From: Candidatus Iainarchaeum sp.
GTDB taxonomy: Archaea; Iainarchaeota; Iainarchaeia; Iainarchaeales; CSSED10-239
Direction of reading: 5' to 3'
DNA length: 5,858 nucleotides
NCBI GenBank assembly: GCA_028700905.1
Contig: JAQVRT010000041.1
Coordinates: 1 to 5,858, forward strand
Notes under the pieces: model-generated
What the model saw: only the letters and a program-made list of their open reading frames with translations
Told to the model about the DNA's origin: nothing
Databases searched by the model: none
Shown here: positions 1 through 5,858 of the stretch, piece after piece
How positions within the stretch are numbered: position 1 is the first letter of the stretch
How the letters are laid out: each line of letters opens with the position of its first letter
Made by a program: the position numbers and the translations under genes

Positions 1-8
1 AATATAAT

Positions 9-2312
9 GTGACTAAAAATGAATATCTTGGAGAATATTCCTCTGCAAATTTAGAAGAAATTATTGAATATGATGGTGATTTTAGAGGAAAATTTATTGA
101 GAAGGGAGATTTAATTTTTACTGAAAAAAATTATTTTGCTCAATTTAATTATTATCCTTTGCCTGTAAATTCATCTTCTGATATTACCCCTAATTCTAAT
201 GATGATTCTTCAATAAAATTAAATTATGAAATTGTTGAGGGTAATAAAATTAAACTTATTTCAAATGATAATGATGCTATTATTTATTATACTTTTAATG
301 ATGATTTTCCTAATATTGAAAGTTATTTAAAAACTTCTTTAAAAAGTGACTCTGGTATAGCTTCTTTACATGAGCTTCATTTAATATCAGGCTATGAAAA
401 TTTAACTAAAATTTATAATAGCCCTGTTCAAATCTCTGATGGACAAAAATTAAATGCAATTGCAGTAAATGTGAATAATTTAGTAATAAGTAATTATCTT
501 GAAGGAATTACTCTTTCATCTTCTGAAAAATCAGAAAGTTCAGAATCATCCTCTTCTTCATCTTCTCAAAGCAATAATTTTTCAATAAACTTTAAAGAAG
601 ATAAAAAAACAGATGATGTAATCTGTGAAAAAGAAACAAAAATCTGTTATGTTAAGTCAAATACAGATACAAATGTTGATTTAATTGCAAATAAAGTAAA
701 TGATGGAAATGTTTATTTTGCAATTAATAATTTGACTAATAAATCTAATCCCTCTTTTAATAATCCAATTTTAATTTCAAATAATCTAAAACTAGGAAAT
801 AATCTTGTAAATTATAATAGTGAGAATACTGAATTTAAAGTAAATTTATCTCAAAGTATAACCGGTAATTATATTATTTCTTCAAAACAAGATAATACAA
901 ATGTTGATAAGTTATATTTTGTATTTTTACCTGACGAAAACTTTGAAGATTTAGTAAAATATAAAACTTTACAAAAAATAATAAATTCTGTATATTGTGA
1001 TGGTTGTAAAATTCCAGATTGGATGCCAAATGGATTAATAATTGATAATCAAAATTTATCTACTAGTGATCCAGATTGTAAATACACTGATGATTTTGAA
1101 ATTTTATGTGATTTTACTATCTTTAATTTAGACGATAAAATTGGAATTAAAAATATTCCTGAATCTCAAGTAACTGGTGGTGATACAACTTATTTCTTTA
1201 CAAATCTAAAAGAAACTTATTTTTTAGAAATGAAAGATAAAATTCCTAATAGCTTAAATTCAAGTGATGTCACAAAAACTTTTTTTAAAGAATTAAGTTC
1301 GAAATTAAATGAATCTGAACTTAAATCTTTATTTGCAATTATTGGAGCTGAATCAAGTTTTAATAAAATGGCTATAGGTGATAAAACAAATGTTAAAGGT
1401 CCTTCTTATGGTTTAGTTCAATTAAATGAACAATTAAGAAATAATCAAACAGAATATAATAAATTAGATCAGTATTTACCTGAAGCTCATAAAGGATTTA
1501 AAAAATATCAAAATTATTTTAAAAATATAAAAGAAGATAAATCAGATTTAGTTGATACAAATTATTCTGTGTATCTTGCATATGCTGTTTATAAATCAAG
1601 TCAAGATGAATTAAATAGTAAGATAAATAATTATAATTCTTTTTCTCCAATAGATAAATTATTTATTCATTTTTATAGTCATCAAATAGGTTTGACTGCA
1701 ACAGTTAATTTTTTTAATGGATATGATAGAAATAAAAAAGCAATCATGGATTGTATAAATAATCCTAATGCTTATAATACTTTTGAAAATAGATTAAATT
1801 GTGTTGCTGTTATTGGTTCTGTAAGAAAACTTGCATGGTACTTATATGCAAATAAACATTGGAATACTTTAAAAGGCGAAGGTAATAATCTTAATGGAAC
1901 AACTTCTACAGATAATGTTAATCTTCCTTATGTTATGTCCGGTACTTCAAAACTTTATATTCATACAAAAGATGCGCCTACTACTTTAAATTGGGAAAAT
2001 GCTGTAAACTATTGTAAAGATATGAATAAAGAAGTTGGTTTAGGGTATGATGATTGGTATCTTCCTAGTAAAGAACAAATGACTGCAATTTGGAATGCAT
2101 GTCCTGATCCAACCAAATCACGTGAATGTATGAATAATAATATATATAATAAAATAAATGGTTGGATAAACTTAATGCCTTATTATTATTGGACAAGTTC
2201 CGAGTACGGCTCGTCCGATGCTTATAGGTTCGATATGGACAATGGCTACATCACCACTAATAATAAGAGCAATAACAAGGATGTACGTTGTGTTCGCGAC
2301 CATTCACCATAG
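9..2312 (+). CDS. Large multidomain extracytoplasmic or virion-type protein. It carries IYYT-type beta-sandwich-like modules, a Ser-rich linker, an SLT-like lytic transglycosylase domain and a C-terminal DUF1566 (Lcl C-terminal, C-type-lectin fold) domain. It is possibly 5'-partial.
   Basis: The supplied ORF is 767 aa with a GTG start at 9 and a TAG stop at 2310-2312. The same frame has no stop back to position 3 (tat aat gtg), so the true start may lie upstream of the window. No N-terminal signal peptide is visible in MTKNEYLGEY..., although the domains are extracytoplasmic types. Two motifs, 'NDAIIYYTFNDDFP...IYNSPVQISDGQKLNAIAV' (about nt 216-474) and 'NDGNVYFAINNL' (about nt 640-790), resemble chitobiase/hexosaminidase C-terminal-like modules. 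That resemblance is low confidence. Confidence 0.9.
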   Translation: MTKNEYLGEYSSANLEEIIEYDGDFRGKFIEKGDLIFTEKNYFAQFNYYPLPVNSSSDITPNSNDDSSIKLNYEIVEGNKIKLISNDNDAIIYYTFNDDFPNIESYLKTSLKSDSGIASLHELHLISGYENLTKIYNSPVQISDGQKLNAIAVNVNNLVISNYLEGITLSSSEKSESSESSSSSSSQSNNFSINFKEDKKTDDVICEKETKICYVKSNTDTNVDLIANKVNDGNVYFAINNLTNKSNPSFNNPILISNNLKLGNNLVNYNSENTEFKVNLSQSITGNYIISSKQDNTNVDKLYFVFLPDENFEDLVKYKTLQKIINSVYCDGCKIPDWMPNGLIIDNQNLSTSDPDCKYTDDFEILCDFTIFNLDDKIGIKNIPESQVTGGDTTYFFTNLKETYFLEMKDKIPNSLNSSDVTKTFFKELSSKLNESELKSLFAIIGAESSFNKMAIGDKTNVKGPSYGLVQLNEQLRNNQTEYNKLDQYLPEAHKGFKKYQNYFKNIKEDKSDLVDTNYSVYLAYAVYKSSQDELNSKINNYNSFSPIDKLFIHFYSHQIGLTATVNFFNGYDRNKKAIMDCINNPNAYNTFENRLNCVAVIGSVRKLAWYLYANKHWNTLKGEGNNLNGTTSTDNVNLPYVMSGTSKLYIHTKDAPTTLNWENAVNYCKDMNKEVGLGYDDWYLPSKEQMTAIWNACPDPTKSRECMNNNIYNKINGWINLMPYYYWTSSEYGSSDAYRFDMDNGYITTNNKSNNKDVRCVRDHSP
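516..572 (+). other. Ser/Glu-rich low-complexity linker (SSSEKSESSESSSSSSSQS) within ORF1
   Basis: Direct translation: tca tct tct gaa aaa tca gaa agt tca gaa tca tcc tct tct tca tct tct caa agc. It separates the N-terminal module from the rest of the protein. Confidence 0.8.
1300..1850 (+). other. SLT (family-1 lytic transglycosylase)-like domain within ORF1
   Basis: The segment 'FAIIGAESSFNKMAIGDKTNVKGPSYGLVQLNE' has the canonical catalytic Glu-Ser (E at nt 1350-1352). About 20 residues later comes the G-L-(M/V)-Q-(I/L) motif (GLVQL, nt 1410-1424). This parallels the 'QESAWNP...GASGLMQI' arrangement of E. coli Slt70-type enzymes. Domain boundaries are approximate and the third motif (AYNAG-like) is not clear. 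Confidence 0.55.
1986..2300 (+). other. DUF1566 / Lcl C-terminal domain (C-type-lectin-like fold) within ORF1
   Basis: The sequence 'LNWENAVNYCKDMNKEVGLGYDDWYLPSKEQMTAIWN...YYWTSSEYGSSDAYRFDMDNGYITTNNKSNNKDVRCVRD' matches the family hallmarks. These are W..A..yC, (D)W(R/Y)LPs.eEl, yWsSs, A(W/Y).f....G and the terminal VRCVR. Confidence 0.7.
2193..2300 (+). other. Candidate DGR variable region (VR) at the 3' end of ORF1
   Basis: There is an abrupt compositional and codon switch. By hand count, 10 of the 20 codons in 2199-2258 end in C (tcc tac ggc tcc ttc gac ggc tac atc acc), against 1 of 20 in 2139-2198. G+C is about 50% in 2199-2258, far above the rest of the window. Most of these codons are reachable from AAC by changing only the A positions. 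The region sits in the C-terminal loop-forming part of a lectin-fold domain and ends in a GC-rich stretch (cgttgtgttcgcgacc) just before the stop. No template repeat or reverse transcriptase is in the window. Confidence 0.4.
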
Positions 2313-2343
2313 GTTTAAAATGAGCTGTATGCTCGTTTTAAAT
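2313..2343 (+). promoter_or_regulatory. Stem-loop 1, starting on the first base after the ORF1 stop codon
   Basis: The arm gtttaaaatgagc (2313-2325) pairs with gctcgttttaaat (2331-2343) as a 13-bp stem that includes two G:U pairs. The loop is tgtat. Confidence 0.6.
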
Positions 2344-2346
2344 CAA

Positions 2347-2369
2347 CAAGATGTCCAGCGGACATCTTG
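2347..2369 (+). promoter_or_regulatory. Stem-loop 2, a perfect 10-bp inverted repeat
   Basis: The arm caagatgtcc (2347-2356) is the exact reverse complement of ggacatcttg (2360-2369). The loop is agc. It is not followed by a T-run, so it is not a canonical intrinsic terminator. Confidence 0.65.
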
Positions 2370-2370
2370 A

Positions 2371-2420
2371 AAAGGGTTGTGTGTGTGAGTGGTTTTGGCA
2401 GGAGCGAGCAGCGCCGCGAC
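2371..2420 (+). other. GC-rich non-coding block of unknown function, including a (TG)5 run at 2378-2387
   Basis: The sequence aaagggttgtgtgtgtgagtggttttggcaggagcgagcagcgccgcgac is far more G+C-rich than anything else outside 2199-2312. It is followed at once by a spacer of roughly 10% G+C. I could not find a convincing fold or an RNA-family signature by eye. Confidence 0.4.
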
Positions 2421-2430
2421 TGATATTCTA

Positions 2431-2453
2431 TTTTTTTAAAAATTATTTTTTTT
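2431..2453 (+). terminator. Oligo-T tracts (T7 at 2431-2437, T8 at 2446-2453) downstream of ORF1, a possible transcription termination signal
   Basis: T-runs follow the structured GC-rich block. Oligo-T alone can terminate transcription in archaea, and hairpin plus T-run does so in bacteria. However, the hairpins are more than 60 nt upstream of these runs, and T-runs are common by chance in DNA this AT-rich. Confidence 0.3.
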
Positions 2454-2602
2454 AAAATGCTAATAATATATATTAAAATATTTTTTTTCTATTTACTTAA
2501 TACTTATTTATAAAATAATTATAAATAGTTTAATAAAAATAAATAAATCATTAAAATAATAAAAAAGAAATATCTCCTTCTCTTTTAGAAATAAATATTA
2601 AT

Positions 2603-2640
2603 AAAGAGAAACAATTCTCTTTTTATTTCTTTATTTTATA
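2603..2640 (+). promoter_or_regulatory. AT-rich hairpin with a T-rich tail just upstream of the ORF2 start
   Basis: The arm aaagagaa (2603-2610) pairs perfectly with ttctcttt (2615-2622), with loop acaa, and is followed by ttatttctttatttt. The stem is weak because only 2 of its 8 pairs are G:C. The function could be terminator-like, attenuator-like, or nothing. Confidence 0.3.
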
Positions 2641-2650
2641 TATATTATAT

Positions 2651-2725
2651 ATGATTAAAAGATATTTTACAATAATTTTCTTTATATTTCTAATAATAGG
2701 TTTATCTGTTCCTATTTTTTCAGCA
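2651..2725 (+). other. N-terminal signal peptide of ORF2 (25 aa)
   Basis: The sequence is M-I-K-R (basic n-region), YFTIIFFIFLIIGL (hydrophobic core), then SVPIFSA with an A-x-A-like cleavage context before E. Confidence 0.75.
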
Positions 2726-5700
2726 GAAATTAACCTAAATCCTTCTAAAACTTATTACTACAACCAAGAAATTGATCTAGGAACAACTTCTCTTCCAGAA
2801 GAAACTTTCTATGTAAACCTAAAAATAACTTCTGAAAACAGAACTTTATTTGAAAGAGATTTTTTAAAAGATGAAGCTTTTAACATCCCTTTTATCTTTC
2901 AAGACTTCTATCCTTCTTCTTTAACTTTAACTTATAATTATTTTTCAGTTTCTAAAGATTTACTTGAAACAAAAGAAGCTTCTTTACTTTTAACAAAACT
3001 AAACCAAGAAATTGAATATTTTTTCTGTAATGAAATTGAGTGTGAAAAAGAACTTTTTGATGTTATTGAAGAAAATGAAGATTTCTATCTTTCCTCTTCT
3101 CTAAAAAACATGTCTTTTACAGTAAAGATAACTTCACAAGATTATTTAAAAGATTATAAAGAAGTATCTTTACCTTTAAAACTTAATTTAAAAGAAGGAG
3201 TTTATTCTTTAGAGATTTCAACAATTCTTGATGATTCAATATTTTCAAAGACTTTAGATGTTATTGTAGTCTCACAAGATCAGATTTCTTCTCCTGAAAA
3301 AAATCCTTCAGATCTTGAAGGTTTAGGTTCTGGTGTTCAAGGTGTTCCTTCTCAAAATATTTTTCAAAAAATAAAAAGTAACAGCTTACAAGATAACTTA
3401 AGAAGTTATTGGTATATTCTCTTAATAATTATTATTTTATTATTCTTAATATTTAAAAAAAGAAAAAAAGAACCTATGCAAGAAAATATTAAAAAAGAAA
3501 GTTCTCTTTCAAGAAGAGAAGCAAGAAAAATGCATTTATTTATATTATTAATAATCATTTCTTTATTTTCACAAATTACTTTTGCAAACTTTGTTGATAA
3601 AGAATACGAGTTTAGTTACTTTACTGATGATTATAAACTGTTAGAAAAAAATTTTCCTCAAGAAAACGAAATTTCTTTATATCTTACAAATTTAAAGCAA
3701 AGTAATTCTTATTTTTTACCTTTAATAAACCATACAAACCAATCTTTAATTAATCCTCAGAAAAAAGAACTTTATCAAGGTACACTAGAATATATTCCAA
3801 TATCTTCTTTATTTGCAATTGATATAAATAAATCACAAGGAAATTATGCTCCTTTCTTGCCAAATGAACAATATTCTCAATATTGTAAACCAGTTTTAGA
3901 TTATTTTAAAAATCATCCTGTTAGTACAAAAGTAGATTTAATAAACAGAAATAAATTTTATTTAACAAATTATATTGGTTTTTCAAAAGAATGTATAGAT
4001 GAGCTTATCTCTAAAAGATGGCTTCAAGAAAAATATGTTTTAGCAGAAATAAAATATTCTCCTAAAGATTTTGATAATCAATCAAAAATTATTCAAGAAG
4101 AATTATTTTTTGAAAGTGATTTATTTTCAGATTCATTAACTCTTCCAATAAACATTATTAAAACAGATTCTGCAGTTGTCTACACTTATCCAGATCCAAA
4201 AAACTATAACAGCATAAGACTTGAAGTTGAGGAAAATGGTTGGATCTTAAGTAATAGAGTTAATTATCCTTATAGTTTTACAGAAATGGAAACAGTTTTT
4301 ACTTTTAATTTAACTGAAGGTGCTTTTGGTTCCTTTAGATATACTCTTAATAATTATAATGAAAATTATGCAGATGTTACTGTTAATTATTTAGATAAAG
4401 AAGAATCTTTATCTTTTAGTAATTTTTTATCTTCAAGTTATTTTTCAATAAACGATAGTAATTTTAATACTGATGTTATAAGTAAATTAAATAGAAATAA
4501 TGGTCATTTAATATTTAATAATTATCAATTATATAATATTGTGGAAAACAGAAGAAAAAGAAGATTATCAATAAATGATAATTATCAAGATTCTTTAAAT
4601 GTTTTATCAAGAAAAGAATATTCTTTAGTATATACTCCTTCTTTTTATAATGAAAATAATTTTTATCTTCATTTAAATTCAGGAAAATACTTAAACCCAA
4701 TAATTAAAGGTAACATGCATTTATTTTATGATGTTGATCCTTTACTTTTTAAAACCATTGATTTGTTTATGATAAATAACGATAATGGTAGATATTATTT
4801 TTCAGAAAACATGGCAAACTATAATTATAGTACAACAAGTTTCCTTCTAGAAAACGATACTGTTAAAATCAATGAAATCTATTCTTCAAAAGACTATACT
4901 TCTTTCCATATTCTTTTTAAAGATGAAAATGTACCTATAGTAATTTCAACAGATAGAAAAAATATTCTTTCAACAAAAGATCCTTATTTCTATATTTATA
5001 AAGATTATTTTATAATGACTTTAAATGGTACTTTAAGAGTTTATAAAAATAAAAATATAAATATTACAGAAAAAGTAAACACTTATAGTAATTATGATGA
5101 TAAATTTTTAACATTAACAGGCAGAAATCCAGATTTTGATAAAAATCAAAACATTTATTTTACAAACAATCTAAAATTATTTAATGACTATATATATGAT
5201 GTCTCAACAGCACAAGACCTATCTTTAATTGAACAAAAAGTATTTTGGGCAAATTCTTTTAAAAAAGCAGACTTAGAAGTTGATGATTGGTTCTCTGAAA
5301 ATAGTTTTTGTGATTCTAATCTTTCAATGGAAGATTTTAACAAAGTTTCTGAAAATCTAAAAAGACTAAATTTTACAATTCTTAAGTACCCTAATCTTAA
5401 TTTAACTCCTTTTAGTAATGTTCTAGAAAATACTAAAAACTATATTATTCCAAGAAACACTTTTACAAAAGAAAATTATAATTTTTTATGTAATTATACA
5501 AAAGAAGATTCTTTTAGAAACTATTCTAATATTATTTTAAATTCTTCAGAATATTTAAATGATCAAAATAGTTTTATTGAACAACTTTCTTTTTTCCAAA
5601 CTCCAATCTCTCAAATATATGGTCATCCTGATAATTATAAAGCAAAATATTTATCTGATTATTTTACTTCTTATAAAGAAGGTATTATTTTTATAGATGA

Positions 5701-5858
5701 AAATAATATTATTAAGGGTGCTTCTTCTCTAAATTTTAAGGATGATTATTCTTCAGTAATTGATTTCTTTTCAAATTATTTAGTGTTTGACAGATTATCT
5801 ATCTTTTATCCTGATAATTTAGTTTTTAGTTTTGAAACTTCTGAAAATTTAGCAACTA
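2651..5858 (+). CDS. Large secreted or membrane-anchored protein of unknown function. It is 3'-partial, has at least 1069 codons and continues past the window end.
   Basis: This ORF is not in the supplied track. The ATG at 2651 is the first canonical start after the in-frame TAA at 2552-2554. I walked every codon from 2651 to 5857 and found no TAA, TAG or TGA. The N-terminus MIKRYFTIIFFIFLIIGLSVPIFSA|E is a classic signal peptide. Codon usage matches ORF1 (AGA for Arg, T/A-ending codons). No Shine-Dalgarno motif lies upstream. I recognise no conserved domain. Confidence 0.88.
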   Translation, partial: MIKRYFTIIFFIFLIIGLSVPIFSAEINLNPSKTYYYNQEIDLGTTSLPEETFYVNLKITSENRTLFERDFLKDEAFNIPFIFQDFYPSSLTLTYNYFSVSKDLLETKEASLLLTKLNQEIEYFFCNEIECEKELFDVIEENEDFYLSSSLKNMSFTVKITSQDYLKDYKEVSLPLKLNLKEGVYSLEISTILDDSIFSKTLDVIVVSQDQISSPEKNPSDLEGLGSGVQGVPSQNIFQKIKSNSLQDNLRSYWYILLIIIILLFLIFKKRKKEPMQENIKKESSLSRREARKMHLFILLIIISLFSQITFANFVDKEYEFSYFTDDYKLLEKNFPQENEISLYLTNLKQSNSYFLPLINHTNQSLINPQKKELYQGTLEYIPISSLFAIDINKSQGNYAPFLPNEQYSQYCKPVLDYFKNHPVSTKVDLINRNKFYLTNYIGFSKECIDELISKRWLQEKYVLAEIKYSPKDFDNQSKIIQEELFFESDLFSDSLTLPINIIKTDSAVVYTYPDPKNYNSIRLEVEENGWILSNRVNYPYSFTEMETVFTFNLTEGAFGSFRYTLNNYNENYADVTVNYLDKEESLSFSNFLSSSYFSINDSNFNTDVISKLNRNNGHLIFNNYQLYNIVENRRKRRLSINDNYQDSLNVLSRKEYSLVYTPSFYNENNFYLHLNSGKYLNPIIKGNMHLFYDVDPLLFKTIDLFMINNDNGRYYFSENMANYNYSTTSFLLENDTVKINEIYSSKDYTSFHILFKDENVPIVISTDRKNILSTKDPYFYIYKDYFIMTLNGTLRVYKNKNINITEKVNTYSNYDDKFLTLTGRNPDFDKNQNIYFTNNLKLFNDYIYDVSTAQDLSLIEQKVFWANSFKKADLEVDDWFSENSFCDSNLSMEDFNKVSENLKRLNFTILKYPNLNLTPFSNVLENTKNYIIPRNTFTKENYNFLCNYTKEDSFRNYSNIILNSSEYLNDQNSFIEQLSFFQTPISQIYGHPDNYKAKYLSDYFTSYKEGIIFIDENNIIKGASSLNFKDDYSSVIDFFSNYLVFDRLSIFYPDNLVFSFETSENLAT
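3407..3472 (+). other. Transmembrane anchor with a polybasic stop-transfer tail (YWYILLIIIILLFLIF-KKRKKE)
   Basis: Direct translation. A hydrophobic helix followed by K/R residues is the architecture normally seen at the extreme C-terminus of anchored surface proteins. Here it sits about 260 codons into a much longer ORF. Confidence 0.7.
3455..3469 (+). repeat. A7-G-A7 homopolymer tract inside ORF2
   Basis: The sequence aaaaaaa g aaaaaaa encodes KKRKK. One extra nucleotide here leads to a stop at 3490-3492, and one missing nucleotide leads to a stop at 3549-3551. Confidence 0.85.
3530..3586 (+). other. In-frame internal ATG followed by a second signal-peptide-like segment (MHLFILLIIISLFSQITFA|N). 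It could be an independent start or a second TM helix.
   Basis: Direct translation. It lies 19 codons after the basic tail of the first anchor and ends in a T-F-A cleavage-like motif. If used as a start, it would give a separate secreted protein of more than 775 aa (3530..>5858). Confidence 0.5.

Follow-up and report, generated by a model that had tools for sequence, protein, structure and literature searches.

Why does a gene on a contig of 23.5% G+C end in a patch where half of the codons close with C? The gene in question is the first open reading frame (ORF) of a 5858-nt stretch of DNA, hereafter the window, which is the complete contig of a fragmentary metagenome-assembled genome (MAG) of Candidatus Iainarchaeum, a DPANN archaeon. 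Most probably, positions 2198-2303 are the variable region (VR) of a diversity-generating retroelement (DGR), located at the C-terminal end of a C-type-lectin-like domain (Lcl_C/DUF1566); the Iainarchaeal protein with this domain is secreted and would be a remote target of the element. We infer that the target gene is non-adjacent ('remote') and that the cassette of Avd, template repeat (TR) and reverse transcriptase (RT), which was seen in relatives only, lies elsewhere in the genome. The argument concerns two features in the first place:

3..2312, + strand: target gene, an ORF whose 5' end is lost at the contig end.
2198..2303, + strand: VR, homologous to the TRs of related DGRs and mutagenised in 2198-2282.

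The anomaly is sharp. Ten of the 20 codons in 2199-2258 end in C, against one of 20 in 2139-2198, which reproduces exactly the counts of an initial annotation of the window. Upstream of 2190, C-ending codons make up 28 of 729 (3.8%), with a maximum of three in any 20-codon window, and the binomial probability of ten in 20 is 9e-10 (7e-7 with the window count as multiplier). C-ending codons never exceed five per 20 in the second ORF. The local depletion of adenine and the G+C content of about 50% that had been described were also confirmed: adenine is 0.23 in 2199-2258 compared to 0.40 upstream, and G+C is 0.50 compared to 0.235 for the window. All 60-nt windows with a G+C of at least 0.45 start between 2185 and 2383, and the G+C-rich island reaches past the stop codon to about 2425 (G+C 0.47 in 2313-2425), an extension absent from the initial annotation. 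The switch of Arg codons proposed there stands for the patch itself, with five AGA codons upstream and then AGG at 2226, CGT at 2286 and CGC at 2295, but one CGT, at 2121, lies outside it. The scaffold residues of the fold had been said to keep ordinary codons within the patch; this was wrong, as TCG, TCC, CGT and CGC are equally atypical.

Is there a template from which such a patch could have been copied? The target protein has homologues in P0002 (62% identity) and in P0003 and P0005 (38%). The genes for P0002 and P0005 share a neighbourhood, with CysRS upstream and TsaD downstream, and a large secreted protein also follows P0002. A degenerate pattern made from the shared 3'-end positions was scanned against genomes and metagenomes, and matched two contigs of MAG GCA_964591795.1, once at the P0005 gene (contig 9) and once at a second site (contig 6); both sites were also found in a JGI metagenome. 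The site on contig 6 is a complete DGR cassette. Its Lcl_C target has a VR of its own, followed by the same downstream element, and a 124-aa Avd, the TR (an A-rich repeat) and an RT make up the remainder. This RT, of 505 aa, directly follows the TR and is in frame with it, and has the motifs IGNLTSQ and YVDD. In GCA_964591795.1, the orthologue P0005 on contig 9 is thus a non-adjacent target of the cassette TR on contig 6.

Further cassettes of like build were reached via relatives of the RT and Avd (L010/L011, L012/L013, L014/L015, L016/L017 and L018), and the order target(Lcl_C)-hairpins-Avd-TR-RT is complete in L007/L008, L010, L012, L014 and L018. The top PDB match of the RT is 8ub7 (entry name 'Reverse transcriptase'), with an E-value of 2e-37 compared to 1e-9 for group II intron RTs; we take 8ub7 to be the Bordetella phage DGR RT (bRT). 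The 124-aa Avd, present in all related cassettes, matches bAvd (E-value 4e-6) and NF033474 (E-value 2e-8), both below the curated cut-offs. The closest relative of the window is L001, with 95.5% DNA identity over window positions 1814-5858; no RT was found within 10 kb of its target. L001 and L002 come from JGI samples 3300042277 and 3300042276, numbers adjacent to that of the cassette-bearing L012 (3300042274). The TR of the relatives lies inside the annotated RT ORF and in frame (L007 742-2259; L010/L012 6001-7518), and many database RT proteins therefore show a spurious-looking N-terminal PF07603 (Lcl_C) match.

Does the patch differ from these TRs as a DGR would make it differ? We compared the window with TRs A, B, C and E, which belong to relatives and are not the cognate TR, in a test that is independent of the choice of any one TR. 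The window differs at 14 of the 44 sites where all four TRs have A, and at one of the 48 conserved non-A sites (2261, a synonymous change from AAC to AAT; Fisher p = 8.8e-5). At 14 sites the TRs disagree; the window has a TR base at 12 of them, and the other two are A in at least one TR. The mismatches to these repeat copies are thus concentrated at TR adenines, the pattern that the initial annotation had predicted of a DGR.

The best-fitting single TR is TR_C, from L012. Over the ~106 nt compared, 17 of its 49 A sites have another base in the VR of the window, as do three internal non-A sites (T to G at 2213, C to T at 2258 and C to T at 2261), and the G at 2213 is common to the window VR and the VR of TR_C's own cassette. 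A sixth TR (L018), aligned by hand, fits less well, with four non-A mismatches. Among the relatives, cognate VR-TR pairs carry the signature of a DGR (their non-A counts leave out a few edge positions beyond homology): the L008 cassette VR differs from TR_A at 20 of 48 A sites and one internal non-A site, L003, the remote orthologue of the window gene (P0005), differs from the same TR at 19 of 48 and one, and the values for the VR of L010 against TR_B are 22 of 47 and one. The VR of L001, compared with TR_C, has 17 of 49 A sites changed, plus one non-A site at the 5' edge.

What gives the patch its composition? TR_C, written in the frame of the VR, reads TTEYSSSNAYKFNMNNGNINNNNKSNNKNVRCVREH. 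Nine of the ten C-ending codons of 2199-2258 already end in C in this TR (ACC, TAC, AGC, TCC, TTC, AAC three times, and ATC), and GGC at 2244 is the sole one gained by an A to C change. The habit of NNC codons is therefore inherited from the TR and not made by mutagenesis. This replaces the earlier idea of an AAC-rich TR randomised into an NNC mosaic, since only three of the nine C-ending TR codons are AAC. The peptide that had been predicted for the TR agrees from AY onward with what is encoded by the closest TR (...AYKFNMNNGNINNNNKSNNKNVRCVREH), while the six Asn residues predicted before that point are TEYSSS. From TR_C to the window VR, adenine falls from 44% to 29% and G+C rises from 34% to 44%. 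The patch would thus be G+C-rich and C-ending because it was copied from a TR that itself uses C-ending codons, with G+C raised further because about a third of the TR adenines were replaced. The Lys codon AAG at 2265-2267 (in ...AATAAGAGC...) has two TR adenines, yet is unchanged in all eight VRs examined, which points to selection on the residue, or against the TAG stop that an A to T change would create.

The conservation of the 3' end brings in a second line of evidence, for which four further features are needed:

2283..2303, + strand: 3' end of the VR, resembling an IMH element (for initiation of mutagenic homing), GTACGTTGTGTTCGCGACCAT; near-invariant in eight target genes.
2312..2344, + strand: hairpin 1, with a 14-bp stem and a 5-nt loop of variable sequence; it starts at the last base of the stop codon.
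2347..2369, + strand: hairpin 2, CAAGATGTCC-AGC-GGACATCTTG, with a 10-bp stem and an invariant AGC triloop.
2399..2422, + strand: hairpin 3, which has AGC as its loop and GA/GA as an internal loop; weak in the window and assigned by homology.

When the 3' ends are aligned, the differences form a mosaic over 2196-2282 and give way to near-invariant DNA between 2283 and about 2370, a degree of conservation that exceeds that of the coding sequence. Positions 2283-2369 are almost unchanged across targets whose proteins are 38-62% identical, and the IMH-like segment is near-invariant even in a relative with a 38% identical protein. The segment equals the 3' end of TR_C (…GCGAACAT) except at 2300, which is A in the TR and C in the VR (GAAC versus GACC). 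That the VR ends in an IMH element, as had been proposed, agrees with this 21-nt segment being conserved and common to the TR bar one position. Position 2300 is a T in the L012 cassette VR. As it is also a TR adenine, it may itself be mutable, and a fixed distinction between IMH and IMH* is doubtful.

The DNA downstream is strongly structured (folding z = -5.6 for 2290-2430). Hairpins 1 and 2 are fully paired in the window, hairpin 1 with one G·T pair. Across the eight targets, 11 of the 37 predicted pairs are changed on both sides and still pair, and hairpin 1 shows compensatory changes at several pairs. Three stem pairs of hairpin 2 are changed on both sides in L014 with the loop kept the same; the stems of hairpins 2 and 3 differ in sequence there, and the AGC loops are retained. 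The block of hairpin 3, GCAGCGCCGCGACTGA, is conserved, and the corresponding hairpin, identical in position and loop, reaches z = -4.9 in L008 and -6.0 in L014. The hairpins are absent after the TR copies, where RT coding sequence stands instead. No Rfam family was found at 2313-2425 or elsewhere in the window at a permissive threshold. For phage BPP-1, a hairpin or cruciform after the VR is needed for efficient homing, its stem sequence being free while its loop sequence matters (PMC3240598), and nanoarchaeal DGR hairpins have constrained trinucleotide loops (PMC4372165). By analogy, TR RNA would be reverse-transcribed by an RT-Avd complex that misincorporates opposite template adenines, and the cDNA would then replace 2198-2303, with homing directed by the invariant 2283-2303 and the downstream hairpins (2312-2369, perhaps 2399-2422).

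Two observations adjoin these elements. The locus L005 (2722-2868), of the related target P0003, has a G to T change in the invariant 21-mer (GTACTTTGTG), turning Arg into Leu, and one broken pair in hairpin 2 (GGAAATCTTG); L005/P0003 is possibly a decaying target. Directly after the G+C-rich hairpin block of the window, the intergenic stretch 2426-2650 has 9% G+C, with T-runs and a 15-nt tandem repeat (2429-2458). Possibly, the target gene has its archaeal terminator in these T-runs; on the minus strand, hairpin 2 likewise receives a terminator-like score.

What kind of protein is diversified? The product of ORF 3-2312 is 100% identical to NCBI MDD4050072.1 ('DUF1566 domain-containing protein, partial', Candidatus Iainarchaeum sp.), and has a linker rich in Ser, an SLT-like domain and, at the C-terminus, Lcl_C/DUF1566:

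1974..2297, + strand: Lcl_C/DUF1566 C-type-lectin-like domain, aa 658-765 (Pfam PF07603, E-value 4e-15); it carries the VR.
1308..1628, + strand: SLT (lytic-transglycosylase-like) domain, aa 436-542 (Pfam PF01464, E-value 5e-5).

Full-length orthologues have a signal peptide at the N-terminus (start MQKRLGILGIFL...), so the target is taken to be a secreted or surface protein. The C-terminal domain models as a C-type-lectin-like fold (Lcl_C/CTLD) in an AlphaFold2 prediction of aa 634-769 built on a 6-row alignment (pLDDT 74, pTM 0.71). Foldseek ranks the C-terminal domain of Legionella Lcl (8q4e; E-value 1.6e-6, TM about 0.6) first for this model; C-type-lectin-like domains from invasin/intimin, snake venom, LOX-1 and others come next. 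This C-type-lectin-type domain has the VR at its C-terminal end, and the end of the VR is 9 nt before the stop codon. DGR targets with a DUF1566 VR form a recognised class, for example in Legionella, and non-adjacent targets are documented (PMC5758913). The proposal that 2193-2300 is a DGR VR at the C-terminus of a DUF1566/C-type-lectin domain, made in the initial annotation, is therefore supported from several sides: the adenine-specific mismatches to TRs, the conserved cis elements, the fold and the remote orthologue. The match to PF01464 is just above the cut-off (23.2 bits compared to 21.3), and E450, S451, G470 and Q473 are invariant in nine homologues. Sequence and profile searches of the PDB gave no match for the SLT region, so the SLT assignment comes from Pfam and the conserved motifs alone.

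Several results weigh against a VR served by a DGR of its own genome. The window has no second copy of 2190-2310, a repeat search having returned low-complexity AT-rich chance repeats only, and no RT or Avd ORF (by ORFs and Pfam); nor could any RT or Avd be attributed to this MAG by RT and Avd searches or by cluster membership, including 90% clusters. The three non-A mismatches to the best TR exceed the limit of 2 per 100 bp of Paul et al. (2015), although they are expected for a TR that is not the cognate one. Hairpin 3 has z = 0.33 in the window. P0002, P0141 and P0142, from three sister-population assemblies, have an identical VR, so that any ongoing diversification has left no trace among these three.

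These results would be at home with a VR that is an orphan or relic, left by past DGR writing or by recombination from a DGR-bearing relative, with no working cassette now, frozen and drifting. We regard this as unlikely, but it is the strongest of the alternatives. The missing RT and Avd in databases and the one VR common to the three sister assemblies would follow from it, as would the C to T change at 2261, at a site conserved in four close TRs, together with the two further mismatches to the closest TR. Hairpin 3 has a weaker outer stem in the lineage of the window, L001 and L005, and L005, with its altered IMH-like segment and broken hairpin 2 pair, shows that decay occurs in this family. 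However, the absence of a cassette means little, because the MAG is fragmentary and the contig 5.9 kb long. The 21-nt IMH-like segment is intact, hairpins 1 and 2 have kept all their pairs and the reading frame is open. Moreover, all but one of the non-A differences match bases of other TRs of the clade, and the orthologue of a sister strain fits an available TR almost perfectly.

We therefore retain a DGR with a remote target as the preferred explanation, and infer that this genome has a cognate cassette, with the TR that the initial annotation expected elsewhere on the replicon, and that the VR continues to be rewritten. The predicted cognate TR is CCGAGTACAGCTCGTCCAATGCATATAAATTCAATATGAACAATGGAAACATCAACAATAATAATAAGAGCAATAACAAAAATGTACGTTGTGTTCGCGAACAT. 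Pattern scans of genomes and metagenomes recovered a relative's TR and VR; neither the window contig nor a TR of its own was among the matches. The RT and Avd clusters nearest this lineage have JGI or Logan members only. One NCBI member, P0132, proved to belong to another metagenome assembly, with a TR_B-like repeat, and is not attributed to this MAG. A scan of viral contigs for the TR-type 3' end gave no match and hence no sign of a phage-borne copy.

Could the patch instead have been acquired horizontally, or by recombination, from a G+C-richer organism without any retroelement? The gene is indeed a mosaic. Its flanks are 95-99% identical to L001, whereas 1130-1814, which includes the SLT region, barely aligns at the DNA level to this closest relative, and 1994-2190 is unusually divergent (16-21 differences per 90 nt). 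The peak of divergence from L001 lies at the VR, with 28 differences in 2174-2263 compared to 0-5 per 90 nt in most flanking windows. We rejected this peak as stand-alone proof of hypermutation, since the adjoining 1994-2173 is not part of the VR and is also divergent, at that same 16-21 per 90 nt, with no TR involved. The mosaic suggests recombination or diversifying selection besides the DGR. As an explanation of the patch, acquisition is nevertheless very improbable: the differences from the TRs fall on adenines, the same patch and downstream elements adjoin Avd-TR-RT in relatives that are as AT-rich as the source of the window, and the loss of A relative to the TR accounts quantitatively for the rise in G+C. 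Local codon bias or an RNA structure in the coding region, for example for expression control, can be practically dismissed despite the strong secondary structure just downstream, because that structure lies after the stop codon and not in 2199-2282, has no Rfam match, and codon bias cannot yield adenine-specific divergence from a repeat adjoining an RT. It is this adenine specificity that leads us to reject both readings.

What might such a DGR be for? A joint reading, which we offer tentatively and hold to be possible but doubtful, combines an SLT-plus-variable-lectin enzyme retargeted by the DGR with a portable 3' 'landing pad'. According to its first part, the DGR would diversify the targeting domain of a cell-wall-cleaving enzyme (SLT plus hypervariable lectin domain), which could let a genome-reduced DPANN archaeon redirect lysis or attachment as the surfaces of its hosts or prey change. 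According to its second, the DUF1566 VR, the invariant 21-mer and the two or three AGC-triloop hairpins may together make up such a landing pad. This 3' module was seemingly added to a family with SLT-terminal members (P0004, P0006-P0008), and would recruit a distant cassette in trans.

The homologues P0004, P0006, P0007 and P0008 end directly after the SLT domain and are without the DUF1566/VR module. As several homologues do without it, the VR module looks like an add-on to an older family of secreted SLT proteins.

How does the system compare with known DGRs? The nearest class is that of DUF1566/CLec2 targets (category 'd' of Wu et al. 2018; Legionella pneumophila LdtA), with which it shares a VR at the extreme C-terminus of a DUF1566/Lcl_C domain, an AAC/AAT-rich TR and a secreted or surface-exposed protein. 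It differs in its DPANN archaeal host (Iainarchaeota), the SLT-like domain in the target protein, the distance of the target from the RT, and the two to three AGC-triloop hairpins after the VR. As in the Treponema denticola DGR (TvpA and remote targets), one TR serves a cassette-adjacent and a distant target in the relatives, but the target family and RT lineage are others, the host is archaeal, and only two targets per genome were seen.

The prototype, the DGR of Bordetella phage BPP-1 (Mtd, Avd, TR, bRT), has the same Avd-TR-RT logic, adenine-specific TR-VR differences and invariant VR 3' end, together with a downstream inverted repeat of variable stem and constrained loop (PMC3240598). The RT of the relatives is most similar to 8ub7. 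In contrast, BPP-1 has one hairpin with a GRNA-type tetraloop (PMC4372165) where we see AGC triloops on two to three hairpins; the difference between IMH and IMH* is here a single position that is itself a TR adenine; and the element is chromosomal, not phage-borne. DGRs are abundant in DPANN archaea and in bacteria of the candidate phyla radiation from groundwater metagenomes. With these and with Nanoarchaeota DUSEL4 the present system shares ultra-small AT-rich DPANN hosts and trinucleotide-loop hairpins beside VRs. The DUSEL4 DGRs, however, have orphan-protein targets, GRA loops and hairpins inside the target gene, compared to a DUF1566 target, AGC loops and hairpins after the stop codon here.

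The system is thus of a well-known kind and leaves the picture of the DGR mechanism unchanged. Less ordinary are the fusion of lectin and SLT domains in a DPANN archaeon, the family members without a VR module and the conserved multi-hairpin AGC-triloop element, which offers a specific candidate, open to testing, for how an archaeal DGR recognises its target. The locus adds an Iainarchaeal surface protein, with a lytic-transglycosylase-like and a variable lectin domain, to the DGR-diversified proteins of DPANN archaea, and is in keeping with the view that these organisms, small as their genomes are, invest in fast-evolving surface binders. It also illustrates that a DGR target can be recognised by composition alone on a short contig without a retroelement, which is useful for fragmentary MAGs, where remote targets are normally missed.

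Some features of the locus and its relatives lie outside this argument. A Ser/Asp/Glu-rich linker unit is present in one copy in the window (515-566), which matches three overlapping positions in L001 (10720-10813); it has three repeats in P0002 and four in P0141 (EDSDSSESSSSSSS), and the linker copy number therefore varies among close relatives. A large ORF on the + strand (2651-5858, 1069+ aa) continues past the contig end and has a signal-peptide-like start and no Pfam match; a run of hydrophobic residues, KKRKK and another signal-like segment lie around 3400-3600. The region homologous to this ORF is a single 1289-aa gene in L001 and two genes in L002. Toxin-antitoxin-type genes (DUF3368/UPF0175, ParE, MazE) recur in relatives, both around the DGR cassettes and around the remote target, at L001 4718-5503 and 7453-8333, L010 876-1211 and 8228-8916, and L018 191-514.

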